A stretch of 64,000 nt of DNA from an uncultured Smithella sp. (GTDB taxonomy: Bacteria > Desulfobacterota > Syntrophia > Syntrophales > Smithellaceae): NCBI GenBank assembly GCA_964539765.1, contig CAZIJZ010000001.1:52248-116247 (forward strand), in the 5' to 3' direction. The first letter of the stretch is position 1, and the number at the start of each line of letters is the position of its first letter. The notes beneath the pieces were generated by a model that was not told where the DNA came from, made no database searches, and saw only the letters and a program-made list of their open reading frames with translations. Made by a program: the position numbers and the translations under genes. Of this stretch, positions 10,856-31,463 are shown one piece after another.

Positions 10856-11434
10856 ATGGCAAAATCGATTAAAGGAACCAAAACAGAGAAAAATCTGCTG
10901 GCATCTTTTGCCGGTGAAGCTCAGGCAAGAAATCGTTATACTTTTTTCGCCAGTGCCGCAAAAAAAGAAGGATATGAACAGATTTCACGGTTTTTTTTAG
11001 AGACAGCGGAGAATGAAAAGGAGCATGCCAAAGTATTTTTCAAATATTTGGAAGGAGGGGAAGTTGAGATTACAGCTTCCTATCCCGCGGGAGTCATTGG
11101 AGATACAAAAAGCAATTTGGAAGCAGCGGCTGCGGGTGAAAACATGGAATGGACCACCCTTTATTCCGACGCGGCAAAAGTAGCCAGGGAGGAAGGATTC
11201 CCTGAAATAGCCCGCTCTTTTGAACAGATAGCCAAGGTGGAGATGTTTCATGAGAATAGATATCGCAGACTGGCGGAAAATATAGCCAAGAAAGAAGTAT
11301 TTAAGAAGAATGCATCCATCAAGTGGCACTGCATAAATTGCGGTTACATATACGAAGGAGAAGAGGCACCGAAAGAGTGTCCCGCCTGCAACCATCCTCA
11401 GGCTTATTATGAAGTCTTAGCCGAAAATTACTAG
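10856..11434 (+). CDS. rbr: Rubrerythrin
   Basis: 192 aa. Diiron four-helix motifs (EAQARNRY, EKEHA, EMFHENRY) plus a C-terminal CxxC...CxxC rubredoxin-like domain. Confidence 0.9.
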   Translation: MAKSIKGTKTEKNLLASFAGEAQARNRYTFFASAAKKEGYEQISRFFLETAENEKEHAKVFFKYLEGGEVEITASYPAGVIGDTKSNLEAAAAGENMEWTTLYSDAAKVAREEGFPEIARSFEQIAKVEMFHENRYRRLAENIAKKEVFKKNASIKWHCINCGYIYEGEEAPKECPACNHPQAYYEVLAENY

Positions 11435-11585
11435 TGAGTCCCAAATTTCAAAAGCGTAGCGCATTGAAATTTGTAGGACGAACTATCCCCGAAGCGAATG
11501 GAAATAATGAGTTCATTAAGATTTTTTCCCGCAGCGGAACGGATGGGCTAGTGAGACATTAAAAATTTCAAACGATAGGATTACA
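11431..11585 (+). repeat. Hairpin-repeat cluster A (one full unit at 11434-11490 plus a truncated second unit from 11548)
   Basis: CTAGTGAG box, CAAATTTCA (11442-11450) / TGAAATTTG (11465-11473) stem, GGACGAACTATCCCC box. CTAGTGAG recurs at 11548. Confidence 0.8.
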
Positions 11586-11591
11586 AGAATA

Positions 11592-11640
11592 AAACAGCCT
11601 CCTGTGTTTCAGATGTCTGAATGCAGGGGCTGTTTTTTTA
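11592..11640 (+). terminator. Intrinsic terminator downstream of rbr and repeat A
   Basis: AACAGCCTCCTG ... CAGGGGCTGTT imperfect stem followed by TTTTTTT. Confidence 0.6.
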
Positions 11641-11656
11641 TCGAAGCTTGTTCTTC

Positions 11657-11685
11657 TTGACAGGTCATACAAAATGCCATAGATA
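11657..11685 (+). promoter_or_regulatory. Putative sigma-70 promoter
   Basis: TTGACA (11657-11662), 17 nt, TAGATA (11680-11685). It lies upstream of the GerMN gene. Confidence 0.45.
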
Positions 11686-11708
11686 GACACAGTTTTTTAA
11701 GGAGTGGA

Positions 11709-12326
11709 ATGTTTATGTCGACCAAGAAACAGTTGAGGTCTGAAAGCATAAAGGACAAGAAAGTTAAAAAATCGACGAAAATCTTTTATCTGGCACTCAT
11801 CGCCGGCGGCGGAATCGTTATTCTGATTATTTTCTTCACGACGATATTCAGCGCTTTGTTTCCCGCAGTGGATACGGAGGCGATGAAAAGAAAAGAGAAA
11901 CATGTTGTTAAAATTTATTTTTCCGATCAGCAGGAACGTTTTCTTAAATCCGAGAAACGTCATGTTGTGAAAGAAAAAGATGTTGCTTTGCATGCCAGGG
12001 AAATCGTCAAAGCTTTACTCGATGGTTCTAAAACGGGACTGGTCAACACATTTCCCAAGGGAGTGACCGTGCGGGATGTGCAAGTCAAAGATGACGGCAT
12101 TGCCGTTGTAAACTTCAGCAAGAATCTGAGCAAATCGTATGAAGGCAGCTCTACCGCTGAAATGTGCACCATATATTCTTTGACAAACTCACTCACTCAA
12201 AATATTCCGGAAATTAAAAAAGTAAAGATATTAATTGAAGACAAGAACGTATCGTCGATTCAAGGCCATATTTCCATCCGGCAAGCTTTTTCGCCGGACC
12301 TGGAATTAATTATTCCTGAACAATAA
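11709..12326 (+). CDS. GerMN-domain protein with N-terminal membrane anchor
   Basis: 205 aa. TM helix, then a GerMN-like region (ALLDG...TFPKGV...VNFS...TIYSLTNSLTQ). Confidence 0.65.
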   Translation: MFMSTKKQLRSESIKDKKVKKSTKIFYLALIAGGGIVILIIFFTTIFSALFPAVDTEAMKRKEKHVVKIYFSDQQERFLKSEKRHVVKEKDVALHAREIVKALLDGSKTGLVNTFPKGVTVRDVQVKDDGIAVVNFSKNLSKSYEGSSTAEMCTIYSLTNSLTQNIPEIKKVKILIEDKNVSSIQGHISIRQAFSPDLELIIPEQ

Positions 12327-12344
12327 GAGAACATAAAGTCTGCC

Positions 12345-14378
12345 ATGGCATCGAAATCAAAAATATCACGCACGCGCAATATTGGTATCGTCGCTCATAT
12401 TGATGCCGGGAAAACGACTGTGACGGAAAGAATTCTTTATTTCACGGGCAAATCCTACAAAATGGGGGAAGTTCATGACGGCGAAGCGGTTATGGACTGG
12501 ATGCCGCAGGAACAGGAACGGGGGATAACCATCACATCGGCCGTGACGACCTGCGCATGGCGAAATCATGACATTCATATTATTGACACTCCCGGTCATG
12601 TTGATTTTACGATTGAAGTGGAACGTTCGCTGCGGGTTCTCGATGGCGCGGTTGTTGTATTTTGTGCGGTAGGCGGTGTTGAACCGCAATCGGAAACCGT
12701 CTGGCGTCAGGCGGATAAATACGGTGTTCCCAAAATAGCTTTTATTAACAAGATGGACAGAGTCGGTGCGGATTATTTCAACGTCATGGGCATGATGAAA
12801 GAACGTTTTGCTTCCATCCCGGTCGCTATTCAAATGCCCGCCGGCAGTGAAGATAACTTCCGGGGCGCGATCGACCTGATCAATCAAAAGATGATTGTCT
12901 GGAATGACTCCACATCCGGCATGGAAATTTCCAGACAGGATATCCCGGATGATTTTGCAGTTCAGGCGCAATTAAATCGTGACAAAATGATCGAAACCCT
13001 TGCGGAAGTTGATGATAGTCTTGCGGACAAGTATTTAAGCGGTGAGGAAATTACCGTCACGGAAATAGAAGAAGCTTTGAGAAAAGCAACCATCTCATTA
13101 AAAATTGTCCCGGTACTATGCGGCGCGGCATTGCGCAACAAAGGTATTCAGCCGGTGTTGGATGCAATAATCAATTATCTGCCTTCCCCCGAAGATATTC
13201 CGCCGGTGAAAGGACTCAATCCTGTGACGAAAGAAGAAGAAGTCAGAAAAAGTTCAGATAAGGAACCTTTCTCTGCGCTGGCTTTTAAAATTATGATTGA
13301 TGAAGGAAGAAAACTTTCCTACCTGAGAATTTATTCCGGCAGGATTCAGGTAAATGACGAAATCTATAATGCAATCAAGAAACGAAAGGAAAAAATAGCA
13401 CGACTTTTGCGCATGCACGCCAACAAACGCGAGAGAATAGATTCCGCTTCAGCAGGCGACATCATTGCTGTACTCGGTCTGAAATCGACGACAACCGGCG
13501 ATACTCTCTGCACCGAAGAGAAACCGATTATTCTGGAATTGATCGAGTTCTACGAGCCGGTCATCAGTCAGGCCATTGAAGCCAAAACTCCCGCTGATCA
13601 GGAAAAACTGGCAATCGCGCTGGAAAAACTCGTGGAAGAAGATCCGACGCTCAAGGTGAAATACGAAGATGAAACGGCGCAAACGATCATTTCCGGCATG
13701 GGGGAATTGCATCTGGAAATTATTGTGGATCGTTTATTGAGAGAATTTAACTGTCACGTCAATGTCGGAAGACCGCGTGTCGTGTATCGCGAGACCATTC
13801 AGAAAAAAGTGGAAACCGAAGGAATATTTGAAAAAGAATTGGGCGAAAAGAAACACTTCGGTCATGTCCGCATTGCCCTGGCGCCGCGTAAGCGAGGTCT
13901 GGGAAATGAAATAATCAACAAGATGGATGAAAGCCTGATGCCTGCCGAATATTACGTTGCGATCGAAGAAGGCATCAGAGAAGCCATGATGAACGGCATT
14001 TTGAACGGTTATCCGGTGATGGATGTGGAGGTTAGTATTACCGGTGGTTCATTCCGGGACGGCGAATCGTCGGTCCAGGGCTACAAAATAGCCGCTTCAA
14101 CCGCTTTCCGGGACGGATGCAGTCTTGCGGACCCGATTATGCTGGAACCTTTCATGATGGTTGATATTATCACCCCCAGTGAGTTCATGGGTGATGTGAT
14201 CGGCGACATCAATGCCCGTAAGGGAGAAATTCAATCCGTAAATCCCAAAGACATGGTCAGCGAAATCAAGGCAAAAGTTCCTTTGAAGGCGATGTTCGGG
14301 TATTCAACAGATTTGAGATCCTCGACTCAGGGACGGGCGGTGTTCTCCATGATTTTTTCTGAATATAATAAGCTTTGA
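12345..14378 (+). CDS. fusA: Elongation factor G paralogue (not in a str operon)
   Basis: 677 aa. [17 protein letters not shown] and NKMD GTPase motifs, and full EF-G domain order. Confidence 0.85.
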
Positions 14379-14468
14379 AATTATTAATTTACTGCAGATA
14401 TCGCGCCTATCCATTTGAGTTTTCATCAGAATAATCCCCCCGAAAATATTTTATTATTTCCTTGAAAA

Positions 14469-14515
14469 TTACTATATATAGTGGTAGTATCTCATTCAAC
14501 CCCAATATATAGCGT
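14469..14515 (+). promoter_or_regulatory. Tandem NrdR boxes upstream of nrdD
   Basis: TTACTATATATAGTGG (14469-14484) and CCCCAATATATAGCGT (14500-14515). The palindrome centres are 31 bp apart. Confidence 0.7.
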
Positions 14516-14565
14516 TATGTGCTTTTATTTATTGATCATTTTATTCGCATTGATGGAGTGTTTTT

Positions 14566-16653: not shown

Positions 16654-16719
16654 ACGAATAATTTACGTTTAACCATATCGGACGCGACGCGTTCGTGTTT
16701 CAAAAATCAGAGGGCAGTA

Positions 16720-17409: not shown

Positions 17410-17557
17410 AATTTGGACGGAAAATTTTAACTAGAGAAATGGAGGGGTGATTGTTCAAGCGCCTGCGGTGACTAAACAAGCGACTAGAGCTGATCCCCGA
17501 TACACGGGCCACTTCAAGCGCGGTTCAATTATACAATCCACGATGTCAGGAGATGAT

Positions 17558-17875
17558 ATGATAGTTAAAGCGAAGGAGGCACGGCGAAAAAGTTTCTTGG
17601 GCGTTGATTTTGTTGTACTCTCGCATGGTCCTGAATCAATGATTACTAAAATGCTGTATAAGAAAGAGGATAATCCTCCCTTGCACAAGCATCCGAATGA
17701 GCAAAGCGGCTATGTAATCTCGGGCAAATATAGAATCATTTTCGGGGACAATAACCAGGAGATAGGTCCGGGTGATTCATATTCTATTCCTCGTGATACT
17801 GAGCATCGCATTGAAATCATTGAGCCCGGTGAAGTGTTGGATTTCTTTAGTCCGCCAAGAAAGGACTATCTGTAA
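17558..17875 (+). CDS. Cupin-domain protein
   Basis: HKHPNEQSGYVISG...IPRDTEHRI cupin motifs. I chose the start at 17558 (AGGAG RBS). The track ORF extends to 17447. Confidence 0.65.
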   Translation: MIVKAKEARRKSFLGVDFVVLSHGPESMITKMLYKKEDNPPLHKHPNEQSGYVISGKYRIIFGDNNQEIGPGDSYSIPRDTEHRIEIIEPGEVLDFFSPPRKDYL

Positions 17876-17895
17876 AGTTATAAACTCTTGCGTCA

Positions 17896-19023: not shown

Positions 19024-19080
19024 AGGAATTTATATATGATCTTTTCTCTGGATTCCCGCCTTCGCGGACATAGCAAATTT

Positions 19081-20877: not shown

Positions 20878-20888
20878 AATTATTTGTT

Positions 20889-20925: not shown

Positions 20926-20944
20926 TTCAATCTTTCCTAACCGG

Positions 20945-21619: not shown

Positions 21620-21807
21620 TTTGTGAGACTCCTTTCAAGATAATATAAAGTTGTCGTCTTATAATGTATTAAGTATTTTTTCGCAATATAAAAGAATAGG
21701 AGGGCATGAAACTGTTGAACGAAAGAGCATTCCCGCAGGGAGGTGCAATAAAGGCCTTCTTCACTCTTCCCTGAATTACTTCACTTTTTTTATAATTTGA
21801 GTTCTCA

Positions 21808-22029
21808 TTAATGACAGGAACATCCCGGCGGGCAGGAGGTCGCTGAGCACGATGAACCGGTTGAACCCGATGACCCCTTAGACTTTCTTCTGGCAGATAC
21901 GGACATGACTTTCTCCGTTTTTTTTGATCCGCATTTCGGACAGGAAAGCCCTTTTTCCTCCGCGGAGGAAAAAATCAAACTTTCAAAAACATGCTTGCAT
22001 TTTTTACATTGAAATTCGTAAATCGGCAT
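21808..22029 (-). CDS. FmdB-family zinc-ribbon protein
   Basis: 73 aa. MPIYEFQCKKCKHVFE...CPKCGS, with a Cys/Ser-rich tail. Confidence 0.7.
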   Translation of the reverse strand: MPIYEFQCKKCKHVFESLIFSSAEEKGLSCPKCGSKKTEKVMSVSARRKSKGSSGSTGSSCSATSCPPGCSCH

Positions 22030-22064
22030 TTGTTCTCAAACCTTTTTTCATCAATGGTTTTAAT

Positions 22065-22300
22065 CCCACAGCACATTGTGGGGTATTGTCCCCTCCGCTG
22101 AGCGGAATTGTTCGACTAACCATACAGCTCCACGAAGCTTCGTATGTGGGATGATTTCCCATCCCGATTAATCGGAATGGGATAGTTCGACTTGTTCTTC
22201 AAATTTCGCTACACTCGTTTTCAGAGACTCTCACGACCACTTACGCTTCGATCTTCATTTCATTCACTCTCAGCGAGTGTCGTTAAAATTTGTGTCTCAT
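22065..22300 (-). repeat. Hairpin-repeat cluster B (mosaic of at least two degenerate units plus GC hairpins)
   Basis: The plus strand reads GGGTATTGTCCCCTCCGCTGAGCGGAATTGTTCGAC, then a CCCATCCCGAT/TCGGAATGGG hairpin, then ATAGTTCGAC ... GAGACTCTCAC ... TGTGTCTCAT. These are homologous to clusters A and C-E. Confidence 0.75.
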
Positions 22301-22353
22301 AATAAAATATACAAGAACTCGATAATGTCAAGGCTGAACCGTGAAAGATTTAT

Positions 22354-23916
22354 TTAACGGTTTATATTTCCTGCGGGAGCACGTTTCTTCTCGGCATTTT
22401 CTACTTCTTTAATGGCCTTATTAATCTCTGTGTGTCTTGCCGATCCCGGTGGGAAATATTGAAGGGCTTTGTCGAAATGAAAGAGGGCGCTGTCTTTTTT
22501 ATTTTCCTGCTGGAAGTGTAATCCGAAGTAATAATGAGAGTCTCCTTTATTGCTGAGTTTTCCATAAGCCATGGCAATAAAGTAATTAATATCCTGATGA
22601 TCAGATATTCTATCCTTAATCTTCAGGTAACAATCAAGCGCGTCTTGATATTTGCCGGAAGCAAAATATACGCGACCCAGGGCCAGCGTTGCTTCATCAT
22701 CCTGATGGTCAACGGAGGATACCTTTGAAAGGTATTCTTGCGCTAAGTTGATTTTACCCATCTTCAGGTAAAGCAACCCTGTGTTTTTTAGAATATCTTT
22801 ATCGTTGGGTGAAAGCTGCAGTGCTTTCTGATAATGCTGAAGAGCGGATTCTGTCTTTCCCATCCGATCTTCCGTTAAAGCCAGATCGTAGAGCAAATCG
22901 ATGTCATCGGGATTATCTTTTAAAGACAGTTCCAGTCTTTTGATCTTTTTGCCGGTTTCCGATGTGTCCAGAGGAATGATGGCCTGAATTCTCTTGAAAT
23001 TACCTATGATATTATATGCTCCTTTTCGATTGTACTGAGTCAGGATCAAGCTATCCATGTAGATAATACGGTCTTCGGTTCCGGGATGTGTTTTCAGGTA
23101 GGAAGGCATCGTTTTGGAGAGGAATTCATTCTGCTTCATGATTTTGAGAAAATCAATCATGGCCGTCGGAGCGTAACCCGCACGGACAAGGTATTCAATG
23201 CCCATCCGGTCCGCTTCTTCTTCATGTTCACGCATGTATCTCAAGGTCATACTGCTTGAACCCGCCAGCGAAAATGCAGCAATGGCGGCTGAGGTTTCTC
23301 CGCCTCCGCCAAGAAAAACACCGGCCAGCATGGCTGCCAGAGCCGCCATGTTTAATTTCGTCGATTTTGAAATAATACTGGCAACGTGACGCGCATTGGC
23401 GTGGCCGATTTCGTGGGCGATGACACCGGCCAGTTGGGCTTCATTTTCGGCGGCCATCATCAATCCCTTGTTGATGTAAATGTAACCGCCGGGAGTCGCG
23501 AAGGCATTGATTGCTGAGCTGTCGACGACGAAAAAATTGAACTGGAAAGGAGCTTGGGTGGTCTGCGCAAGTACCAGATTGCCGACTTTGTTGATATAAT
23601 TTCTGGTTGTGTTGTCATCAAGAATCAGGCGATGTTCAACCATTTTATCGTAAAATTCCTTGCCGAGTTTTTTCTCATCGTCAATGGTGAACTCGGCAAA
23701 ACAAATATTGGTGTTGAAAAGAAATATCAGAACAATAACAAGGAAACCAAGGGTATGAACCCCAAGGCAAGCCCCGGACCTAAATTCTTCCCCAAGGGGC
23801 GGGGTATTATACCCTCCGCTTATGGCGGGATTGTTCGACTTGCAAATTTCAGTACACTCCGTTTTTGAAATTTGAGTCTCACAATAAATATATTGATTTT
23901 GACTCGATTTACGCAT
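22354..23916 (-). CDS. M48-family Zn-metalloprotease with C-terminal TPR repeats (BepA-like)
   Basis: HEIGHANARH motif and TPR repeats. The start is set at ATG 23916; the track extends to TTG 23988. Residues 12-41 are encoded by repeat C. Confidence 0.75.
   Translation of the reverse strand: MRKSSQNQYIYCETQISKTECTEICKSNNPAISGGYNTPPLGEEFRSGACLGVHTLGFLVIVLIFLFNTNICFAEFTIDDEKKLGKEFYDKMVEHRLILDDNTTRNYINKVGNLVLAQTTQAPFQFNFFVVDSSAINAFATPGGYIYINKGLMMAAENEAQLAGVIAHEIGHANARHVASIISKSTKLNMAALAAMLAGVFLGGGGETSAAIAAFSLAGSSSMTLRYMREHEEEADRMGIEYLVRAGYAPTAMIDFLKIMKQNEFLSKTMPSYLKTHPGTEDRIIYMDSLILTQYNRKGAYNIIGNFKRIQAIIPLDTSETGKKIKRLELSLKDNPDDIDLLYDLALTEDRMGKTESALQHYQKALQLSPNDKDILKNTGLLYLKMGKINLAQEYLSKVSSVDHQDDEATLALGRVYFASGKYQDALDCYLKIKDRISDHQDINYFIAMAYGKLSNKGDSHYYFGLHFQQENKKDSALFHFDKALQYFPPGSARHTEINKAIKEVENAEKKRAPAGNINR
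23796..23883 (-). repeat. Hairpin-repeat cluster C (single well-preserved unit)
   Basis: The minus strand 23882-23827 reads GTGAGACTCAAATTTCAAAAACGGAGTGTACTGAAATTTGCAAGTCGAACAATCCC. Stem arms are at 23843-23851 and 23866-23874. Confidence 0.8.
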
Positions 23917-24011
23917 AGAAAGTTCCAAAATAATATAATTAAATATAATAGTACCTTCTTTATTTTTTAAAGACAAGTTTTCATTCAATGACAGAAAAAG
24001 GATTGTTGGTT

Positions 24012-24680: not shown

Positions 24681-24788
24681 CCAAAATATACTGAATTATA
24701 TTTAAATGATTTATGTTGATATTTAAAATCTGGTATGTTAAACCTTAAAAATTACAGGGTTTCATAAAAAACAGGGGGTATTGGTTTA

Positions 24789-26552
24789 ATGGTTAACAAT
24801 AACAACACAAACTTAACTAAACAAGGTGAGGTTGACGAGAAATCTTTGCCGAAGAATAATTCAACTTCAACAAAAGAAGAAGAAATGGATTTTAAAGAGC
24901 TTTACGAAAAAAGCCTTAATCAATTTCAATATGGTGATATAGCGACCGGCAAGGTTGTGCAGATAAAAGACGACAGAATCATGGTTGATGTCGGCTGGAA
25001 GACAGAAGGCTTTATTCCGATAGACGAAATAAAAGACGCCAAAGGAAACATTAATATTTCCGTCGGCGATGAAATAGATGTGTTTATTGATAGAAGGGAT
25101 TCCGAGGGAAATCTGGTTTTATCCAGAGACAAGGCTTCCAAAGTTAAAATATGGGATGAGATTAAAAATACCTGCGAAAACGACACGCTGGTGGAAGGCG
25201 TTGTCGTTGAAAAGGTCAAGGGAGGACTTTCTGTCGATATCGGTATTATCGCTTTTCTTCCCGGATCACAGGTCGATGTTCGTCCGGTTAAAGATCTGGA
25301 CAAATTTGTCGGTCAGACACTTGATTTCAAGGTGCTGAAATACGACAGGAAACGTAACAATGTTGTTTTATCACGACGGGCAATTGTGGCTTCGGAAAGA
25401 GAAGCAGAAAAACAGGATATCCTGAAAAATATAAAAGAAGGTAACGTCGTAGAAGGTATCATTAAAAATATAACCGATTATGGCGTTTTTATAGATCTGG
25501 GCGGCATTGACGGACTCCTTCATGTTACCGATATTTCCTGGGGGAGAATTGTCAAACCGTCTGAGATGTTTCAGAAGGGTGACAAAATTACCACGAAAGT
25601 TCTTTCTTTTGATTCAGAGAAGGAAAGAGTTTCTCTTGGCCTCAAGCAATTAACGGAAAATCCCTGGGAAAAAATAATGGAAACGTATCCCGTGGGATCT
25701 GTTGTCAAGGGGAAAGTGGTGAATTTAACCGATTACGGTGTTTTTGTAGAATTGAAATCAGGCGTTGAAGGACTGGTTCATATATCGGAAATGTACTGGA
25801 CCAGAGAAATAAAGCACCCGTCCAAAGTTCTCAGTATCGGTGAAGAAATTGATGTGATGGTGCTGGAGGTTAATCCTCAGAACAAGAGAATTTCTTTAAG
25901 CCTGAAGCAGACAACTCCCAATCCGTGGGAAAAACTCAAGGAAAAATATCCGGTTGGAACGGTGGTGAAAGGTACTGTCAGAAACATTACCAACTTTGGA
26001 GTTTTCGTGGGCGTTGAAGAAAAAATTGACGGTTTGATTCACGTGTCGGATATTTCCTGGAAGCACCGGGTAAATCATCCCTCTGAATATTTTAAAAAAG
26101 GTCAGGAAGTTGAAGCGGTCGTGTTGAACATTGATGTGGAAAATGAAAAGTTCTCCCTGGGCATCAAACAGATAGAAAAAAATCCGTGGGATGAGTTGTC
26201 GGAGAAATATGCTCCGGGCAGTGTCGTCACGGGCAAAATAACAAACTTTACCGATTTCGGCATTTTTATGGAAATTGAAGAAGGGATAGAAGGTCTTGTT
26301 CATATTTCCGAGATAAGCCAGAAGCGTGTAAAAACATCTTCGGAGCTTTATTCGGTTGGCGATACGGTTTCCGCCGTCGTGAAAAGTATTGATCCCAAAT
26401 CCAAAAAAATACGATTAAGCATTAAAGAATTGGAAGCTCCGGCTCCGACGCCCGCATCCAATCAGTACATTAACAATACGGAAAATATCGGTTCCAATCT
26501 CAGTCATGCCCTTGCTGACGTGAAAATAAACACTAAACAAAAGGACGAATAA
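24789..26552 (+). CDS. rpsA: 30S ribosomal protein S1
   Basis: 587 aa with six S1 repeats (GxV..I..fGaFV.l....GLvH.S). Confidence 0.95.
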   Translation: MVNNNNTNLTKQGEVDEKSLPKNNSTSTKEEEMDFKELYEKSLNQFQYGDIATGKVVQIKDDRIMVDVGWKTEGFIPIDEIKDAKGNINISVGDEIDVFIDRRDSEGNLVLSRDKASKVKIWDEIKNTCENDTLVEGVVVEKVKGGLSVDIGIIAFLPGSQVDVRPVKDLDKFVGQTLDFKVLKYDRKRNNVVLSRRAIVASEREAEKQDILKNIKEGNVVEGIIKNITDYGVFIDLGGIDGLLHVTDISWGRIVKPSEMFQKGDKITTKVLSFDSEKERVSLGLKQLTENPWEKIMETYPVGSVVKGKVVNLTDYGVFVELKSGVEGLVHISEMYWTREIKHPSKVLSIGEEIDVMVLEVNPQNKRISLSLKQTTPNPWEKLKEKYPVGTVVKGTVRNITNFGVFVGVEEKIDGLIHVSDISWKHRVNHPSEYFKKGQEVEAVVLNIDVENEKFSLGIKQIEKNPWDELSEKYAPGSVVTGKITNFTDFGIFMEIEEGIEGLVHISEISQKRVKTSSELYSVGDTVSAVVKSIDPKSKKIRLSIKELEAPAPTPASNQYINNTENIGSNLSHALADVKINTKQKDE

Positions 26553-26555
26553 GAC

Positions 26556-27452
26556 ATGAGAAAACATCCCGTGCTCTTTGGAATGTTAATCCTTTTTGCG
26601 TTTGGCGTGATCTTATATTTATCCTTTTACCGGGCCGGTTTTAATTCGGGAAGAGCTACCGGTTTTTCATTAAAAGATAAAATCGGCGTTGTGCCCGTTG
26701 AAGGAATGATTGCCGATTCGCTGGAAATTGCCGAACAGCTGAATGAATTTGGCAAAGATGATTCAATCATCGCAGTGGTTCTCCGGGTAGATTCGCCGGG
26801 CGGCGGTGTTGCCGCTTCTCAGGAAATATACGATGCCGTCCTTGAGCTCAAGAAAACAAAGAAAGTTGTTGTTTCCATGGGGTCGATCGCCGCTTCCGGC
26901 GGTTTGCTTGTCGCCTGCGCCGCCGATAAAATTGTCGCCAATCCCGGGACCATAACCGGCAGTATTTCAGCCATTATGCAGTTCGCTAATTTCGAAGAGC
27001 TGCTCAAAAAAGTAGGTGTAAAATCCGCCGTGGTGAAAAGCGGCGAATACAAGGACATCGGCTCTCCGTTAAGAGACATGACCCCCGAAGAAAAAGTCAT
27101 CGTTCAGGATCTGGTGGATGATATTTACAATCAGTTCGTGGATGTGATTGTAAAAGAAAGAAAACTTTCCCGGGAAAAAGTTATCGAAATCGCCGATGGA
27201 CGGGTATTTTCCGGCCGCAAGGCAAAAGAACTGGGACTGGTTGATTATCTCGGCGATATGTCTTCAGCCGCAAAACTCGCGGATAAATTAGCGGGGGGCA
27301 ACGGCAAGTTCGATTTGGTTTATCCTTCAAAGAAAAGAGCATCTGTTTTCGATTATTTTCTGGAGGGCGCGGCAAGTAAAATAAGCGCTTCACTCAAGGA
27401 AAAAATGGAGATGAAAAGCGGTTTAAGTTACTTATATTATCCCGGAAGATAA
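26556..27452 (+). CDS. sppA: Signal peptide peptidase SppA (36K type, S49)
   Basis: 298 aa. N-terminal TM helix and the SPGGGV...GSIAASGG motif. Confidence 0.85.
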   Translation: MRKHPVLFGMLILFAFGVILYLSFYRAGFNSGRATGFSLKDKIGVVPVEGMIADSLEIAEQLNEFGKDDSIIAVVLRVDSPGGGVAASQEIYDAVLELKKTKKVVVSMGSIAASGGLLVACAADKIVANPGTITGSISAIMQFANFEELLKKVGVKSAVVKSGEYKDIGSPLRDMTPEEKVIVQDLVDDIYNQFVDVIVKERKLSREKVIEIADGRVFSGRKAKELGLVDYLGDMSSAAKLADKLAGGNGKFDLVYPSKKRASVFDYFLEGAASKISASLKEKMEMKSGLSYLYYPGR

Positions 27453-27465
27453 AGGAAAGTTTATT

Positions 27466-27750
27466 ATGACAAAAAACGATTTGATAAAGAAATTACAGGA
27501 AGAACTCAAAACCTATTCTCTCAAGGATGTAACTTATGTCGTCAATATAATATTTGATTCGATGATTGACGCGATAAAGCGCGGCGAGCGCATTGAGTTA
27601 AGGGGATTCGGTAGTTTCGAGGTCCGGGAAAGAAAACCGCGCATGGGTCGTAATCCCAAGTCAGGTGCGCAGGTGAAATTAAAGGAGAGAAAAGTTCCCT
27701 TTTTTAAAACAGGAAAAGAACTTCGCCTCATGGTAGATAATAAAAAATGA
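27466..27750 (+). CDS. ihfB: Integration host factor beta subunit / HU-family DNA-binding protein
   Basis: 94 aa. RGFGSFEVRERKPRMGRNPKSG arm motif, and the cmk-rpsA-ihfB context. Confidence 0.75.
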   Translation: MTKNDLIKKLQEELKTYSLKDVTYVVNIIFDSMIDAIKRGERIELRGFGSFEVRERKPRMGRNPKSGAQVKLKERKVPFFKTGKELRLMVDNKK

Positions 27751-28514
27751 CATACCATACGTTAATTGTTGAAAAGAAAAAAAAGGTCGCCGTCATTAAA
27801 TTGAATCGCCCTCATGAAATGAATGCGATTAGCAAGGAAATGCATCAAGATTTGTATGATGTATTTACCAATTTGGAAACCGATTCCGATGTGCGGGCGG
27901 TCGTTCTGACCGGCGGAGAATATGTCTTCTCGGCAGGCATGGATATCAAAGAACTGAACAGCCTGCCCGATAAAGAAAGCGATGAATTCCTCAAGTCCAT
28001 GATGAAGTATTTAAAAAAGATCTATACGTTTAAGAAACCGGTGATTGCTGCGGTGGGCGGAATCGCTCTGGGCGGCGGTTTTAATCTGGTTACTGTTTGC
28101 GATCTTGTCGTCGCATCGGAAAGCGCCATCTTCTGTCATCCTGAATTGAAATTCGGATTTAATCCATTCTTTTATCCTCTGAGTCAGATTGTCGGCATTA
28201 CAAAGGCCAAGGAAATCGTCATGCTGGGAGAACCAATCGGAGCCAATGAAGCGTTGAAACTGGGTCTGGTCAGTAAAGTTGAACCGCCGGAAAGATTCAT
28301 GGAAGTGGCGGAAAGCATCGCGGATACTCTCTCTCAGCGTTCTCCGAGAGCTTTTGAAGAATTGAAAAATCTGTGCTCCATTGTACCCCGCATGGATAAA
28401 ATGGCCGCCATGGATATTGAATCATCAATCTGCGCTTTGCTCTTTACGCGCGATGAACGAAAAGAGCAAATGAAAGAAGTTTTGTCTAAAGATAAGTCAA
28501 AAAAGAAGGCTTAA
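27747..28514 (+). CDS. Enoyl-CoA hydratase/isomerase family protein
   Basis: 255 aa. Crotonase motifs (VVLTG...FSAGMDI, AAVGGIALGGG). ATGA overlap with ihfB. Confidence 0.8.
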   Translation: MTYHTLIVEKKKKVAVIKLNRPHEMNAISKEMHQDLYDVFTNLETDSDVRAVVLTGGEYVFSAGMDIKELNSLPDKESDEFLKSMMKYLKKIYTFKKPVIAAVGGIALGGGFNLVTVCDLVVASESAIFCHPELKFGFNPFFYPLSQIVGITKAKEIVMLGEPIGANEALKLGLVSKVEPPERFMEVAESIADTLSQRSPRAFEELKNLCSIVPRMDKMAAMDIESSICALLFTRDERKEQMKEVLSKDKSKKKA

Positions 28515-28525
28515 TTAAGTAAATC

Positions 28526-28810
28526 TTACAGGCTATCCCAGTCATTGCCCGGCGCGGCAAAATCTTTGAGTTGATCCCGTCTCTTTTTATGCTGGAGTTT
28601 CTTCAGTGCTTTGGCTTCAATCTGGCGAATACGTTCGCGGGTAACTCCCATCATATCACCGACTTCTTCGAGAGTAAACGGACCGTAATTGCAGGCGACC
28701 CAGGTGCAGTTCAGAAACGATTCGTTTTTCAAGCGCCATTCACAGGTTGTATCGGTACAGATTTCACTGATCAGGGTATTCTTTTTCTTGCATTTATACA
28801 TATTAATCAT
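28526..28810 (-). CDS. Free-standing sigma-70 region 4 (HTH) protein with Cys-rich N-terminus
   Basis: 94 aa. [26 protein letters not shown] closely resembles RpoD region 4.2. There are five Cys in the first 40 residues. Confidence 0.65.
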
Positions 28811-28891
28811 GGAGAAAACTCCTTGTTGTTAAGTTTTGCTTGAATATAATGATTTATTTAAGGAAATCAAGTAAAAATATGAAAATATTTT

Positions 28892-29092
28892 AATGAGACC
28901 CAAATTTCAGAAACGAATAACCTAAATAACCTAAAGGTCACTGTAGGGTCACTATAAGCGCACTGAAATTTGTAGGACGTAATGAAACACAAAATTCAGG
29001 AATAAAATGAACTGAATTTTGTAAGTCGAATTATCAAATCCCTATGTATCGGGATTTGAAACTATACCCACCGCGAAGCGTTAGGGGATAAG
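28892..29092 (+). repeat. Hairpin-repeat cluster D (two units, the first with a 41-nt insertion in its loop)
   Basis: ATGAGACC box. Stem 1 is 28901-28910 with 28963-28972. Stem 2 is 28990-28999 with 29012-29021. This is followed by AAGTCGAATTATC and an AAATCCC/GGGATTT hairpin. Confidence 0.8.
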
Positions 29093-29125
29093 GTAAAAAA
29101 TCAAAAAGCGAAAAATAATAGTATC

Positions 29126-29458
29126 TTAGAATCCTATTTTTTCCTTGGGTCTTCTTTCCGGAACGTATTGTTGTTCGATTTTTCCTTCGTTCCATTCGGC
29201 GGAAACGTATAAATTACAGAAACAACTGCCGTATTCTTTGATATCTTCCGGCCGGTACTGACAGGGGCAGATAATATCGGTGTCCTTTTCTCGGCTACCA
29301 GCCGCCAGGCGGCAAGGGCAGCACATATAACCGTAGCGTTCTTTATTGACTAAAAGGTCGGCCAGAATGCTCAAGACCCAGTCTTTGTCTTTGTTGAAAA
29401 AATACCCCTTAGGCTCCTGAGCCTTCTTCATCATGTCGTAGAGTTCAGCGGGAGTCAT
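29126..29458 (-). CDS. Ferredoxin:thioredoxin reductase catalytic-subunit-like protein
   Basis: 110 aa. CPC-x14-CPC-x12-CFC cysteine pattern of the FTR beta family. Confidence 0.7.
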   Translation of the reverse strand: MTPAELYDMMKKAQEPKGYFFNKDKDWVLSILADLLVNKERYGYMCCPCRLAAGSREKDTDIICPCQYRPEDIKEYGSCFCNLYVSAEWNEGKIEQQYVPERRPKEKIGF

Positions 29459-29709
29459 TAGATGCCCAAAGCCTCCTTAATGGCGTTTTCCTTGAAACCG
29501 ATGATAACCTTATCGCCGATTAAAATGGTCGGGAAAGAACGGTCGGGATTGTACTGCGTCACTTCTTCCAGAATCTTCTGCCGGTCTTCGCCCTGCAGCA
29601 GATCGACATCAACACAATCAAAAGGAATGCTGTTCTCGTTTAAAAATTTCTTTGTCGCCTTGCAGTGACTGCACGTGCTCAACGTGTAAATTTTAATTTT
29701 AGCGGCCAT
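29458..29709 (-). CDS. Glutaredoxin-like protein (YruB/NrdH-like)
   Basis: 83 aa. The CSHC active site lies in a thioredoxin fold. The stop/start junction is shared with the FTR-like gene. Confidence 0.8.
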   Translation of the reverse strand: MAAKIKIYTLSTCSHCKATKKFLNENSIPFDCVDVDLLQGEDRQKILEEVTQYNPDRSFPTILIGDKVIIGFKENAIKEALGI

Positions 29710-29869
29710 CTTCTTCTCCTTGATATTGATGTGCTTATTTAACCAAGTTTTGAAAAAATGACAATCGTTTATTTTTTGATGATACGGGCATTAATGTGTA
29801 GCTTGAGGGGCGCGGAGACAGTAAGAGATGCTTGCTGGTGTAGCGTCCCTCTCAAAGCGTTTGTTAGCG

Positions 29870-30322
29870 TTATTTACCGAAGACTTCATCCATAACCCGA
29901 AAAAACGTCAGTTCTCTGGGTTTGTTGATGTTGTCGAACATTGCCTGAATATCAATTTTCCCAGGAGGATACTCAGTAATCTTGATTCGTTTCTTTGTTG
30001 CGGCTTCTTCAAACACCGGTTCTCCGCCTTCTACTTTCCAGCCAGGGTCAATTGACTCAATTTGTTGGATGAGGAGAGGCGTTACATCTTCTCCATCTGG
30101 GGTGAAATGCTCAGGCCCCAGCTTTATGGTTTGGTGTTTTTGGTTGAAATTCAGATAAAGGCTCCAGGGCTCGACTGGCCGTCCGCCATCTGCAAAGTAC
30201 CCCATCACATAACCAATCATTCGCATGACAGAGTGTTCATGCATGGCGTAGGCCAGTTGATTTCCGTTCTGGACAATGTACAGGCTCCAGCGGAAACCGA
30301 GCAAATTATTGAGAAAACCCAT
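29870..30322 (-). CDS. Hypothetical protein (150 aa), downstream partner of the HEPN-like gene
   Basis: GGAGG RBS at 30329-30333. No recognisable motif. Confidence 0.5.
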   Translation of the reverse strand: MGFLNNLLGFRWSLYIVQNGNQLAYAMHEHSVMRMIGYVMGYFADGGRPVEPWSLYLNFNQKHQTIKLGPEHFTPDGEDVTPLLIQQIESIDPGWKVEGGEPVFEEAATKKRIKITEYPPGKIDIQAMFDNINKPRELTFFRVMDEVFGK

Positions 30323-30391
30323 ATACTACCTCCGTAACGCTAACGTTATGTGCAGATCACGATAGATTTCTGCATTAATTTTTCCATATGG

Positions 30392-31045
30392 CTACCACTC
30401 ATCTTCCCATTTTGGCCGACCTTTATAATTGCATTTCCAGCCGCTGCAGATTCTAAAGCCATCATGAAGATGCATTCCCATTTTTGTTACCACTGCGGGA
30501 AATAGGTTTTCAATGATTGTTGAAGCTACACCCAAAGCCAAGTGAGCTTTTTCGTCAGATGCTATTTCGGCCCTGTGCAGTACTAAGTTTCTTTGCTTTT
30601 GTACCTCTTTTATTTCTTGCCAAACAGGTTTGCTAGAGCCCAATCTTAGGTAAGTATCCAGATTAACCCCACCATGCTGTTGAAGTATTTGCAAAAGCAA
30701 CTCTCTATATTTGTCCATACTCGAATATGATATTGCCAAGTCGGTTATTAAAGTTGCAACAGGTGTAGCATGAACCAGACCGAAAACAATCGGTTTTAGA
30801 AGCGTTTCCTTTAGTCCAACTTCCATAGCGATAGCAGCATAAATAAGGCCCGCAGTAGCATTTATTCCTATTAATTTTCGTGCTTCGATGAGGGCGTTGA
30901 AAGCTGGTTCTGCGAGAAGACGATTCTCATTGTAATAGGACTTTAGTCGCTCGTCAGTAAATTCTTCTATTGCCTCCTGTTTATGTTCTTCATAAAGTTG
31001 CGCCATATACTCTTCATATGCAGCGTCTTCTGGCGTCATCGACAT
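30392..31045 (-). CDS. Hypothetical helical protein with HEPN-like R-N-x3-H motif (candidate RNase/toxin)
   Basis: 217 aa. QKQRNLVLHRAE (R152..H157, codons 30592-30575), GGAG RBS, Cys/Trp/Lys-rich tail. Confidence 0.45.
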   Translation of the reverse strand: MSMTPEDAAYEEYMAQLYEEHKQEAIEEFTDERLKSYYNENRLLAEPAFNALIEARKLIGINATAGLIYAAIAMEVGLKETLLKPIVFGLVHATPVATLITDLAISYSSMDKYRELLLQILQQHGGVNLDTYLRLGSSKPVWQEIKEVQKQRNLVLHRAEIASDEKAHLALGVASTIIENLFPAVVTKMGMHLHDGFRICSGWKCNYKGRPKWEDEW

Positions 31046-31060
31046 GCAATAATCTCCTGC

Positions 31061-31104
31061 TTTTCACATAACATTGTTTATATGGATCGGTGGTGATGTG
31101 AAAA
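31061..31104 (-). promoter_or_regulatory. 9-bp inverted repeat in the leader of the HEPN-like gene
   Basis: TTTTCACAT (31061-31069) and ATGTGAAAA (31096-31104), 26-nt spacer. It lies immediately upstream of the RBS on the minus strand. Confidence 0.4.
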
Positions 31105-31129
31105 CTTTTAATTTATTTTTAATACGATG

Positions 31130-31463
31130 TCAACAATTCCACTTCGCTTCGTTTTTGTAATTATAGTGTCACTATCCCGCTATGCTACGCTTCGTGGACA
31201 ATTCCATTTGCGCTTCAAATGTCGTTTCATTCATTTTACCACGGCGCTACGCGCCTGGTATAGTTTGCATAACTTCAAACTTCCCTAGCTCAGCCAAGTC
31301 TTTTTGACTTGGCTGTTAATATATAGATATGCTGAGTATATATACGGTCGAGTCAAAAAGACTCGACCAATCTTGCTGGGTTCACTATCCCACTCCGCTT
31401 CGCTTCGGGGACAATTCGACTATCCAATTTCAATGCACTTCGTTTTTGAAATTGGAGTCTGAT
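31130..31463 (-). repeat. Hairpin-repeat cluster E (partial unit 31131-31175, other modules, full unit about 31378-31463)
   Basis: The full unit has stem CCAATTTCA (31424-31432) / TGAAATTGG (31447-31455), GGGGACAATTCGAC and GAGTCTGAT boxes. It overlaps the 3' end of the nitroreductase ORF. Confidence 0.8.
31292..31368. repeat. Inverted doublet of two 23-nt hairpins (REPIN-like)
   Basis: AGCCAAGTC-TTTTT-GACTTGGCT (31292-31314) and GGTCGAGTC-AAAAA-GACTCGACC (31346-31368), flanking an AT-rich 31-nt spacer. Confidence 0.7.

Follow-up and report, generated by a model that had tools for sequence, protein, structure and literature searches.

Small, insertion-prone hairpin repeats in the DNA of Smithella, a family not described before and likened to REP/BIME and MITE elements

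Judging from sequence comparison, five repeat clusters in a 64,000-nucleotide stretch of DNA from an uncultured Smithella sp. (the window) belong to a family of small DNA repeats, not described before, that form hairpins and are prone to insertion. The family, which is abundant in Smithella-type bacteria and extends to some Bacteroidales, can be likened to REP/BIME and MITE elements, yet it fits neither definition. The clusters are probably mosaics of small non-autonomous mobile DNA modules, the hairpins of which act at the DNA level, and the mobilising enzyme would be supplied in trans.

The family and its 56-nt unit

A genome scan gave at least 119 stretches with copies of the family among the matches listed, and the covariance model has 159 matches in total, 149 of which lie outside ORFs. 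At least 83 loci are found in MAGs of Smithella, Smithellaceae or "Syntrophaceae", 20 loci in MAGs of Bacteroidota (some of them Bacteroidales), and a few copies on IMG/VR contigs. There are 56-mers that are identical across at least five species-level genomes, and the complete composite architecture is seen in a Bacteroidales chromosome of 5.6 Mb as well as in contigs of Mb scale from Prolixibacteraceae; its presence in two phyla argues for horizontal spread. No family match was obtained in Rfam, GenBank phages or PLSDB plasmids. The earlier note on this DNA had described an unannotated modular mosaic hairpin family that it could not assign to any known one, and this is supported by the further copies, by strong covariation and by the Rfam result; all five clusters lie where it had placed them and carry the sequences that it quoted.

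The M1 unit is a 56-nt interrupted palindrome, 5'-TAR TGAGAC YC AAR TTTCA R AA RCGNAGY GNA Y TGAAA YTT G NN RGTC GAAY TA-3', and its hairpin has 20 base pairs, interrupted by a tandem G·A/A·G mismatch that is conserved and by a bulge of 2 nt, with a GCGNAGC/ACGNAGT mini-hairpin at the apex. The 9-bp stem noticed earlier is only the centre of this ~20-bp hairpin that spans 56 nt, and the (A/T)(A/T)GTTCGAC box is the unit's own 3' arm (GTCGAAY) read in reverse complement. Among 145 distinct copies, which come from about 100 loci, double (compensatory) changes are seen in 19 of the 20 pairs, 95.1% of the cells are paired and 442 cells are compensatory, and the covariation score of 0.441, versus at most 0.092 with the partners slid, was reached by none of 500 shuffles. 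The covariation supports the claim that the hairpin is under selection, for which two paired stem changes had been quoted that are both correct, at 31424-31455 (CCAA/TTGG) and at 28990-29021 (CAAAATTCAG/CTGAATTTTG). The inner stem covaries also in copies that were not chosen by the search pattern, e.g. TTCCG/CGGAA and TATTAC/GTAATA. The apex is a GNA closed by C-G and R-Y, i.e. the GCGNAGC DNA mini-hairpin, and R and Y covary (A-T 61, G-C 33, G-T 7, A-C 2). Mini-hairpins of this type are markedly more stable in DNA than in RNA and are known from priming and initiation signals (PMC13037366).

Every companion module is itself a hairpin. M2 is a hairpin of the type ATCCC...GGGAT, frequently with GCGNAGCG as cap, and M3 a long GGGTAT...ATACCC hairpin that ends in ...ACCCGTGAT. 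Composites with a left and a right end, 100-190 nt long, recur about 35 times in other loci, and their left and right hairpins are dissimilar in sequence. The third module of the earlier note has been confirmed; like other modules, it is present in further loci (5-25), and the mosaic make-up of the clusters is borne out. Elements stack head-to-tail or nest in apical loops of earlier copies; neighbouring units have the same orientation in 22 of 23 cases and do not form inverted pairs as in REP/BIME/REPIN systems, which is why the analogy with BIMEs fails on orientation.

The clusters in the window

Units in the window were located with a covariance model built from 97 copies, which detected none outside 11.4-31.5 kb. 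Cluster 1 begins with an M1 unit on the plus strand (11432..11487, 80.3 bits), whose first three bases, TAG, are the stop codon of a rubrerythrin gene and whose DNA fold (-13.9 kcal/mol, z = -7.2) matches the covariation structure. The remainder (11483..11586, plus strand), read directly with the modules identified by comparison with other loci, holds an M2-type hairpin (ACTATCCCC-GAAGCG...GGGCTAGT) with an internal insertion and a truncated second unit that begins with TAGTGAGAC at 11549, and an intrinsic-terminator-like hairpin with a T-run follows the cluster at ~11594-11639. A relative (L040), the rubrerythrin of which is 87.5% identical, has a unit at the same site that is ~77% identical, versus 47% in the neutral comparison, with two compensated pairs.

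The sequence of cluster 2 (22056..22302, minus strand) is a mosaic of an M1 5' half, M4 (ACACTCGCTGAGAG...GAATGAAATGAAG...GAAGCG), a variant M1 and two M2 hairpins, then GTCGAAC, CCGC-TCA-GCGG and a GGGG..CCCC hairpin. In the 5'UTR of a Zn-ribbon gene (ATG at 22029), the insertion comes immediately behind the promoter-like site TTGACA-16-TATTTT at 22331-22304, which with 10/12 is the joint top promoter-like match, tied with three others. L123 and L124 have no element at the insertion site, and in the sister species L121 it is occupied by different modules.

Cluster 3 is a composite element of 138 nt on the minus strand (23747..23884, from sequence and translation), consisting of an M1 at the left end (23829-23884, 73 bits), CCCGCC-ATAA-GCGG, a long GGGTAT...ATACCC hairpin and the right end GGGGTTCATACCCTTGG. 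The five clusters had been called intergenic, but this one, which reaches to 23747, adds 46 codons in frame to an M48 protease gene (22354-23916, minus strand), within the region for the signal peptide. More than 100 M48 orthologues are without the insert and read MRKFxQNQYIY directly followed by F..., whereas the sister protein P0002 (86% identical) retains the 46-codon insert, which is thus kept open in two species. In the M48 ORF of L126 there is a decayed copy.

Cluster 4, antisense to the genes on both sides, starts with an M1 that carries a 41-nt module (AACCTAAAGGTCAC...) in its apical GNA triloop (28891..28979, plus strand; local covariance-model matches at 28897-28979), and 25 sources together contain this apex-insert module 30 times. 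The remainder (28980..29091, plus strand) comprises an M1 with a decayed apex (28980-29035, 48 bits) and two M2 hairpins, CAAATCCC-N8-GGGATTTG and TACCCACC-GCGAAGCG-TTAGGGGATA. The left part of cluster 5 (31381..31465, minus strand) is an M1 (31410-31465, 75 bits) with an M2 hairpin capped by GCGAAGCG; a nitroreductase ORF (31430-32092) runs 12 codons into the unit and ends at the unit's internal TGA, whereas the nitroreductases of L125 and L127 end without the element in ...INF and the stop. Its right part (31118..31290, minus strand), read from sequence and the direct repeat D12, is built of an M2 hairpin (TACCAGGC-GCGTAGCG-CCGTGGTA), M4, another M2 and a degenerate M1 (31118-31174, minus strand, 22.8 bits). 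An additional mosaic, beyond the clusters of the earlier note, is seen in the sequence at 32120..32245 (minus strand), where an M4-like piece is joined to M5 (GGAGGAGGCTCCGCAGGCG...CGAGGAAACCGACGACGCAG); M5 recurs in 5 sources, and in L106 an M1 unit is nested within an M5-type module.

Gain, loss and target sites

The elements have evidently been gained and lost between related genomes, as the syntenic relatives compared show insertion polymorphism at several sites. A sigma70_r4 stop site that carries an element in L125 and L127 has none in the window, and sister genomes differ in module content. The landing sites are A/T-rich and end in T-runs or TA(A/G), examples being terminator tails, stop codons, a -10/+1 region and the codon stretch TATTTAT^TTT, and the insertion polarity is fixed relative to this motif. 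A T-run (at least 4) is present within 10 nt upstream in 39 of 117 units, an A-run in only 4, and 22 of the 117 directly follow a terminator-like hairpin with T-run. In 8 of 116 cases, an ORF with 100 codons or more has the first triplet of the unit as its stop codon, versus at most 3 at nearby offsets, except for 4 at +28, which is the unit's internal TGA. Owing to T/A microhomology, the exact ends of an insertion can be placed only to within 1-3 nt.

Level of action and mobilisation

The best reading is that the hairpin acts at the DNA rather than the RNA level. It is unlikely that the units are primarily RNA elements, i.e. UTR hairpins (stabilisers, RNase barriers, attenuators or protein-binding sites) that are selected in transcripts, were multiplied by duplication and work in the same way as REP or BOX RNA hairpins. 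In the window, four of the five clusters are co-oriented with the local gene, as had been noted, cluster 1 lies between stop codon and terminator and cluster 2 in a 5'UTR, and such a role would agree with the strong covariation, the conservation of some orthologous copies above neutral rates and the stable predicted RNA fold of the composite (-47.9 kcal/mol). The co-orientation does not extend to the family, however, since 40 units between tandem genes are co-oriented and 29 anti-oriented, 45 versus 38 relative to the majority strand of the locus, and divergent and convergent intergenic regions hold 23 and 15 units. Loop sequence, G·A/A·G mismatch and bulge are kept whichever the orientation, and among non-Watson-Crick cells the G·U-type is not in excess over the A·C-type (G·T 40 versus A·C 30; 58 versus 60 in the pattern-independent copy set). 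As the orientation is near random and the wobble pairs show no asymmetry, the transcription-linked RNA role implied earlier is not supported. The GNA triloop cap is a DNA-stable, not an RNA-stable motif, Rfam families gave no match, and many units are situated just downstream of an intrinsic terminator and would thus rarely be transcribed.

Also improbable is a role as host-maintained architectural or binding sites in DNA (for nucleoid proteins, gyrase or replication/priming factors) with ancient or incidental mobility, in which the hairpin or cruciform is kept by selection for a chromosomal function, as proposed for REP/BIME. Such a role would fit the orientation-independent units, symmetric between the DNA strands, the GCGNAGC mini-hairpins of priming and initiation signals, one terminator-adjacent site that is occupied in five species (L007, L021, L038, L075, L078), and cluster 4, which is wholly orthologous in L125 and has been kept since that split (82.5% identity versus 43% at four-fold degenerate sites of six flanking genes). 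But close relatives differ in presence and absence even at disruptive sites (in-frame insert, stop codon, 5'UTR), modules turn over between sister genomes, the hairpin of the decayed L126 copy was not maintained, and the horizontal spread between phyla speaks against it as well; with five clusters within 20 kb and none in the other 44 kb, a regular chromosomal spacing is not suggested. Some old orthologous copies are nevertheless conserved far above neutral, as would not be expected of a purely selfish element. Such conservation requires host-level selection or gene conversion and leaves room for host-level roles.

That the similarity is due to chance, assembly or binning is next to impossible and effectively refuted: all sources are MAGs or metagenome contigs, often broken at repeats (L001 ends just after cluster 1), but the pattern CAAATTTCA-N14-TGAAATTTG with up to 3 mismatches has 4 matches in the window versus 0.26 expected (0 of 100 shuffles reach 4), 103 of 117 pattern matches have common flanking features that the pattern left unspecified, and copies lie within Mb-scale long-read contigs and a complete chromosome, with orthologous copies in independently assembled genomes.

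The family can be compared with several known systems. REP/BIME/REPIN elements of Enterobacteria, Pseudomonas and others, which are associated with RAYT (Y1), are mainly intergenic, high-copy imperfect palindromes that are thought to be recognised as single-stranded DNA hairpins (PMC3733652, PMC3333891). Like these, the family forms mosaics with linker modules, has neither TIRs nor TSDs and occurs occasionally inside genes, but it has no unpaired GTAG or CGTC tag and no preference for gene 3' ends, its unit has 56 nt with ~20 bp instead of 20-40 bp, and the apex is the GCGNAGC mini-hairpin. Non-autonomous elements derived from IS200/IS605 (palindrome-associated transposable elements) share the absence of TIRs and of a clear TSD, a hairpin at or near each composite end, and a polar insertion immediately 3' of a short T-rich motif, here TTTA(W)/TAR. 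The targets of IS605, IS606 and IS608, TTTAA, TTTAT and TTAC, are similar to this motif. The two end hairpins of the family are unrelated in sequence, however, and the left one begins 0-3 nt from the junction. For IS200/IS605-type elements, a clear replication-strand bias is expected, and the weak bias of the units to the G-rich strand (43:30) counts against such a mobilisation. Classical MITEs (Correia/CREE of Neisseria, RUP of pneumococcus, ERIC/IRU) are likewise non-coding, 50-200 nt in size, with long hairpins, and insert near genes, changing UTRs, promoters and C-termini, but here the hairpin arms are internal and not the element termini. Rickettsia palindromic elements are inserted in frame and retained as peptide segments like the M48 insert, which is the one intragenic case seen here, and sequence and host range are unrelated. 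BOX of pneumococcus and NIMEs of Neisseria are also modular mosaics of few recombining sub-modules; their module sequences differ, and here all modules are hairpins that nest in the apical loops of others.

The earlier observation of no transposase, TIR or clear target duplication has been borne out. TGAGAC... and ...ACCCGTGAT, the two ends of the composite, do not form an inverted repeat, duplications of TA or of other targets are not consistently present (identical flanking triplets in just 5 of 40 units), and no neighbour gene recurs across 120 loci. The window ORFs tested include no transposase, tblastn gave no Y1 transposase in ~0.9 Mb, the search of 120 loci and ~0.9 Mb yielded neither RAYT nor TnpA or TnpB, and none of the composites compared was an autonomous copy with matching ends. 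A hairpin that is nucleated at the DNA-stable GCGNAGC mini-hairpin may be recognised in single-stranded or extruded DNA by an enzyme that would act in trans from a gene not nearby, most plausibly an HUH/Y1-type transposase of the IS200/IS605-RAYT kind. In that case, the covariation would be the outcome of selection for the ability to be mobilised, along with conversion from arm to arm and from copy to copy. Effects on host RNA and proteins, i.e. UTR hairpins, altered C-termini and the 46-residue signal-peptide insertion, would be by-products, some of which may later have come under host selection.

The hairpin unit and its covariation

The five repeat clusters that had been noted in the window are all present as quoted and are linked to each other by self-comparison of the window, in which the pattern CAAATTTCA-N14-TGAAATTTG with up to three mismatches matches four times against 0.26 matches expected by chance. 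A covariance model of the unit, termed M1, finds good copies at 11432-11487 (+), 23829-23884 (-), 28980-29035 (+) and 31410-31465 (-), a degenerate copy at 31118-31174 (-), a copy split by a 41-nt insertion in its apex at 28897-28979 (+), and no units elsewhere in the 64-kb window. The 9-bp stem by which the earlier note had described the repeat is real, but in an alignment of 97 distinct units it is only the middle of an interrupted hairpin of 56 nt with 20 Watson-Crick pairs and the consensus 5'-T A R T [G A] G A C Y C A A R T T T C A R - AA - R C [G N A] G Y - G N A - Y T G A A A Y T T G - NN - R G T C [G A] A Y T A-3'. The hairpin contains a conserved tandem G·A/A·G mismatch (G·A in 77 and A·G in 88 of the 97 units), a 2-nt bulge on the 3' strand, an asymmetric internal loop and, as its apex, the mini-hairpin RCGNAGY. 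The window copies adopt the same structure in DNA folds with ViennaRNA, at -9 to -14 kcal/mol and with z values of -2.8 to -7.2. Also the statement that the repeat belongs to no known family has stood up in Rfam, where the window has no match at the gathering score and the stretch 11000-32500 gives only sub-threshold noise at a permissive threshold (E >= 0.039). The direct repeats with a spacing of 258-261 nt at 25467-26321 are ordinary and reflect the S1-domain repeats within the gene for ribosomal protein S1.

Copies beyond the window and compensatory changes in the stem have been found, and the finding of the earlier note is genuine and its interpretation largely right. In the alignment of pattern-selected units, 94.6% of the cells pair and 12 of the 20 pairs have changes on both sides; in 145 distinct hits of the model, 95.1% of the cells pair, double changes occur at 19 of the 20 pairs, and 442 cells are compensatory. 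The covariation score of these 145 hits is 0.441, as compared to at most 0.092 when the partners are slid by 1-3 columns, and the value was reached by none of 500 shuffles. The inner stem covaries also in the 57 units that do not match the search pattern, with variants such as TTCCG/CGGAA, TTTTA/TAAAA, TATTAC/GTAATA and GCTTCAG/CTGAAGC. At the apex, the R and Y positions covary as well (A-T 61, G-C 33, G-T 7, A-C 2), and the 5' TAR pairs and covaries with the internal YTA (TAA/TTA, TAG/CTA, TTG/CAA, TCG/CGA). The sequence GCGNAGC is known as the "mini-hairpin DNA" motif, in which a GNA loop with a sheared G·A pair is closed by two pairs, which has an exceptional stability as DNA and a clearly lower one as RNA, and which occurs in single-strand initiation signals and in the N4 hairpin promoter (PMC13037366). 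In the window, 6 of the 23 occurrences of GCGNAGC lie inside the clusters, which occupy 2% of the sequence.

In several loci (L021, L030, L040 and L071), one or the other arm has been converted so that it complements its partner perfectly, which suggests an intramolecular, hairpin-templated correction of DNA. The G·A/A·G mismatch is restored to Watson-Crick pairing by a 5' arm GTTCGAC in L021, L038 and L078 and by a 3' arm GTCTCAC or GTCAC in L071 and L040, and the unit of L030 is a perfect palindrome. Further observations concern the orientation of the units, which is close to random: of the units in intergenic regions between tandem genes, 40 have the orientation of the genes and 29 the opposite one, 23 units lie in divergent and 15 in convergent regions, the ratio is 45:38 relative to the majority strand of the locus and 43:30 relative to the local GC skew, and in the window both orientations occur inside 20 kb of uniformly positive skew. 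Among the non-Watson-Crick cells, G·T and A·C are almost evenly represented (40 versus 30, and 58 versus 60 in the pattern-independent units), so there is no RNA-type tolerance of wobble pairs on a "sense" strand. The near-random orientation, the even split of G·T and A·C and the arm conversions together argue that the hairpin is selected in DNA and not in transcripts of fixed polarity; units that are transcribed will nonetheless fold into hairpins as RNA. An operator or regulon site with a specific sequence is rejected because the stem sequence varies with the pairing kept, and a K-turn because the bulge lies 4 bp from the G·A pairs.

Modular elements and their insertion sites

M1 units are followed downstream by further hairpin modules. 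M2 has the form (A)TTATCCC...GGGATAA(T), is often capped by GCGNAGCG, and has the variants CCAATCCC-N-GGGATTGG and CCAATAGCC-N-GGCTATTGG; M2b is CCCGC-N3-5-GCGG, and M3 is a GGGTAT...ATACCC palindrome, the centre of which may carry small hairpins and the terminus of which is ...GGTTCATACCCGTGAT. M1, M2b and M3 form a discrete composite element of 100-190 nt: about 35 right ends, the termini of M3, have been found, and practically all have a co-oriented M1 100-260 nt upstream. Three more modules each recur in 5-25 other loci, namely M4 (ACACTCGCTGAGAG...GAATGAAATGAAG...GAAGCG), the apex insert (AACCTAAAGGTCAC) and M5 (GGAGGAGGCTCCGCAGGCG...). The apex insert interrupts M1 precisely at its GNA triloop, both in the window copy at 28897-28979 and in the syntenic relative L125 and other loci, and in L106 an M1 is nested in M5, a module that has a copy without M1 in the window at about 32120-32215. 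Neighbouring units within clusters are co-oriented in 22 of 23 cases. Where two M1 units stand in tandem, the upstream one is truncated precisely behind ...RGTCG and continues with TA(A/G)TGAGAC, not GAAYTA (L012 3675-3773, L054 5973-6071, L034, L019, L026, L053, L105 and L111); the cut falls at the G of the A·G mismatch (model position 51), and this recurrent truncation point may be a site of cleavage or recombination.

Three syntenic relatives, fetched through the M48 protease encoded in the window (amino acid identity 69% for L125/L124, 86% for the sister species L126/L121, and 71% for L127/L123), allow occupied and empty sites to be compared. Cluster 3 is a 138-nt composite that is inserted in frame as 46 codons (CETQISK...GVHTLG) into the signal peptide of the protease, between MRKSSQNQYIY and the hydrophobic core, and more than 100 orthologues without the insert read MRKFxQNQYIY|F...; the empty site is TATTTAT^TTT. 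In the sister species the insert has been kept open and at equal length with a decayed hairpin. No alternative canonical start codon is found downstream of the insert in the window gene, and we thus infer translation through the element. The gene calls for this protease (22354-23916; P0001, P0002, P0122) disagree, in that the element is included in calls of 520 and 531 aa and one NCBI record of the sister species has 457 aa, an annotation inconsistency that is caused by the repeat.

Cluster 2 lies between the ribosome binding site of a Zn-ribbon gene and a TTGACA-16-TATTTT promoter-like site, which ties for the top promoter-like score in the region (10/12); its site is empty in L123 and L124 (TATTTTATT|AAA...) and is occupied in the sister species with fewer modules. 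The stop codon of a sigma70_r4 gene is occupied in L125 and L127 (...TGTAA|TGAGCC...GGGATAA|A...) and empty in the window (...TGTAA|GATTT), the region from the Zn-ribbon stop to adk has elements in L124/L125 and L121 and none in L123, and cluster 4, which the window shares with L125, is for the most part missing from L127. There is no clear target duplication at the compared sites beyond an ambiguity of 1-3 nt T/A. A duplication of TA or TAA suits the sigma70_r4 site and fails family-wide, as identical flanking triplets are found in only 5 of 40 M1+M2 elements.

Some differences between the relatives concern segments beside the repeats. Between the halves of cluster 5, a non-repeat segment at 31290-31372 (-) with the hairpins GGTCGAGTC-TTTTT-GACTCGACC and GCCAAGTC-AAAAA-GACTTGGC is kept almost base for base in L127, where no repeat units stand; this segment, which follows the nitroreductase gene, may represent a small RNA or a regulatory site. 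Adjoining cluster 5, about 1.2 kb at 29870-31045 (-) with ORFs of 150 and 217 aa, for which Pfam, NCBIfam and PADLOC give no convincing match, is missing from the syntenic L125 and L127. A 142-aa cupin-domain ORF at 17447-17875 (+) looks like a lineage-specific gene insertion in the gap between NrdG and HemN, which is 487 nt long in the window versus 119-172 nt in the three relatives.

As to the target, a motif of T-runs followed by TA(R) is enriched upstream of the units but loose, and its TAR may stem either from the target or from the element. Of the 117 full units listed, 39 have a T-run of at least 4 within 10 nt upstream and 4 have an A-run, 67% have a T at position -3, and 22 stand directly after a terminator-like hairpin with a T-run, the sequence of which is unique to each locus. 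In 8 of the 116 units listed, an ORF of at least 100 codons ends at the first triplet of the unit (TAA or TAG), as compared to at most 3 at nearby offsets with the exception of 4 at +28, the internal TGA of the unit, and more units at stop codons are found in L124, L125, L127 and L131. In the last of these, which is among the IMG/VR contigs L128-L132, the start of the unit coincides with the stop codon of a 309-aa ORF. In five species (L007, L021, L038, L075 and L078), units of differing subtypes stand right after the same orthologous terminator (..GCACC..GGTGC-T8), which fits either a hot spot of repeated insertion or a replacement of old copies.

Hosts, known families and the proposed mode of mobilisation

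One genome per species was scanned with the loop-anchored pattern TTTCARAARCGNAGYGN{2,5}TGAAA, the outer stem being left free, and at least 119 stretches matched. Of the 117 matches listed, 103 carry (R)TGAGAC upstream and RGTCGAAY downstream, neither of which is demanded by the pattern, and the remaining 14 look like chance hits. By record title, at least 83 family loci belong to Smithella, Smithellaceae, "Syntrophaceae" or unclassified deltaproteobacterial MAGs, and at least 20 to Bacteroidota MAGs, which include a 5.64-Mb Bacteroidales chromosome, a 3.1-Mb Prolixibacteraceae contig and a 340-kb Bacteroidales contig. With contigs of such length, binning error is unlikely to explain the Bacteroidota loci; two further loci on short contigs are probably misbinned. 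The window, too, belongs to a Smithella-type MAG, and Smithella names attach to the cluster of its M48 protease and to that of the sister species. The Bacteroidales chromosome locus (L050) holds the same M1/M2b/M3 composite, and 56-mers are identical across at least 5 species-level genomes. When the copy by which a locus was chosen is left aside, the locus sequence contains about 50 additional copies per Mb, which extrapolates to approximately one to a few hundred copies in each genome, and 149 of 159 units found with the covariance model lie outside ORFs. Among IMG/VR contigs, five of seven matches are family members, PHROGs annotation of L131 gave no hits, and BLAST with a 142-nt composite found no match in PLSDB plasmids or GenBank phages; a phage vector for the spread across phyla is only a lead. 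No repeats are described for Smithella or Syntrophus in the literature searched, and Smithella, Syntrophus and Syntrophia are unmentioned in the REP surveys consulted.

The elements are polymorphic in their insertion, lie with an apparently fixed polarity at A/T-rich sites linked to T-runs or TAR, have neither terminal inverted repeats nor a consistent target duplication, grow head-to-tail and by nesting in loops, covary symmetrically as DNA, and have their whole architecture in common between two phyla. Transposases of the IS200/IS605-RAYT class need no terminal inverted repeats, make no target duplication, recognise hairpins and insert with polarity 3' of short T-rich targets. The elements would be moved in trans by a hairpin-recognising DNA enzyme, for which a HUH/Y1 transposase of this type is the best available analogy. 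Like IS200/IS605-derived elements, the composite has subterminal hairpins at both ends, but its two end hairpins are dissimilar to each other, and the orientation bias relative to replication (lagging-strand template) that is expected of such elements is only weak (43:30 relative to GC skew), both of which count against a strict membership in that class.

REP elements are palindromes of 20-40 bp with an unpaired GTAG/CGTC end tag, high copy number and a mainly extragenic position (PMC3733652). The copy number and the extragenic position are matched by the family, whereas the size of M1 with its 56 nt and 20 pairs is not, and in place of the end tag the consensus ends with TAR-TGAGAC and GTCGAAY-TA; GTAG arises in M1 only when the apex N is T, and CGTC only in a GTCC subtype on the opposite strand. 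REP, BIME and REPIN units are often paired in opposite orientation (PMC3733652, PMC3333891), unlike the neighbouring units here, of which 22 of 23 pairs are co-oriented, and a RAYT gene flanked by repeats, as in REP/RAYT systems, was not found in 120 loci and the window. Classical MITEs have terminal inverted repeats, which are ruled out by inspection of the composite ends, as (T)TGTGAGAC... and ...GGTTCATACCCGTGAT are not complementary, and a target duplication of fixed length, which the family lacks in three comparisons of empty and occupied sites and in the flanking triplets (5 of 40 identical). The in-frame intragenic insertion is shared with Rickettsia RPEs, and the modularity with BOX elements and NIMEs. 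An origin from group II introns or attC sites, considered from insertion sites and ends, is rejected because the defining domains or core sites are absent. The family thus works like REP/BIME/REPIN elements and hairpin MITEs but departs from them in their defining features; there is good support for a repeat family that had not been described before and whose structural signal is unusually clear, and on present evidence it does not amount to a system of a categorically new kind.

The search for an enzyme covered several levels. Clustering of 757 ORFs from 120 loci gave only housekeeping families and no recurrent neighbour gene or transposase, and the ORFs between inverted unit pairs are all housekeeping as well (LeuB/LeuD, ABC transporter, oxoacid:ferredoxin oxidoreductase). 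A tblastn search of about 0.9 Mb with an IS200 TnpA query returned nothing below E = 0.37, and the same 0.9 Mb contain no autonomous IS with composite ends and no ORF between paired left and right ends. The unexplained ORFs of the window include no transposase according to Pfam, NCBIfam and PADLOC, but a cupin, a XerD-like integrase that is conserved in synteny, and two ORFs without match. A comprehensive reading, which we consider rather doubtful as a whole, would be that GCGNAGC-capped modules shared across Desulfobacterota and Bacteroidota are moved by an undescribed mechanism that involves neither inverted repeats and target duplication nor a typical RAYT or IS200 enzyme and that reads T-tract/TA(R) sites such as terminator tails and stop codons, possibly via the foot pairing of TAR with the internal YTA, whereby directional head-to-tail and loop-nested mosaics would be built, copies of which would later have been domesticated under host-level purifying selection as terminator-proximal or UTR elements.

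Conservation of old copies and significance

Old copies are better conserved than their neutral surroundings. Cluster 4 of the window and of L125 is 82.5% identical over 211 aligned columns, as compared to 43% (173/402) at four-fold sites of the six flanking genes; the cluster 1 unit is about 77% identical to its counterpart in L040, with two fully compensated pair differences, versus 47% at four-fold sites; and the modules of cluster 2 that are shared with the sister species are about 94% identical, versus 65% at neutral sites. The orthologous M2 of cluster 4 has been swapped between the family variants CAAATCCC/GGGATTTG and CCAATAGC/GCGATTGG. The copies are either under host-level purifying selection or homogenised by gene conversion or re-insertion at hot spots, and a conservation above neutral makes it less simple to regard the elements as purely selfish.

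Smithella and its relatives are key syntrophic degraders of alkanes and propionate and are known almost only from MAGs. The repeats have practical effects, as they break assemblies and cause annotation errors such as at the M48 start. The Logan contig L001 (SRR8925774, 6196 bp), which is identical to the window, ends about 460 bp past the rubrerythrin stop codon and just beyond cluster 1, which is consistent with an assembly break at the repeat. UTRs and stop codons are remodelled by the repeats as well, and so is a signal peptide. The covariation is unusually clean for a DNA-level hairpin (19 of 20 pairs), the GCGNAGC mini-hairpin finds a natural use as a cap, modular growth proceeds by nesting in loops, and one architecture occurs in two phyla that share anaerobic habitats. 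The identification of the mobilising enzyme and of the reason why old copies are better conserved than synonymous sites would extend the REP/RAYT-IS200 paradigm, and the enzyme could yield a new hairpin-guided DNA insertion activity.
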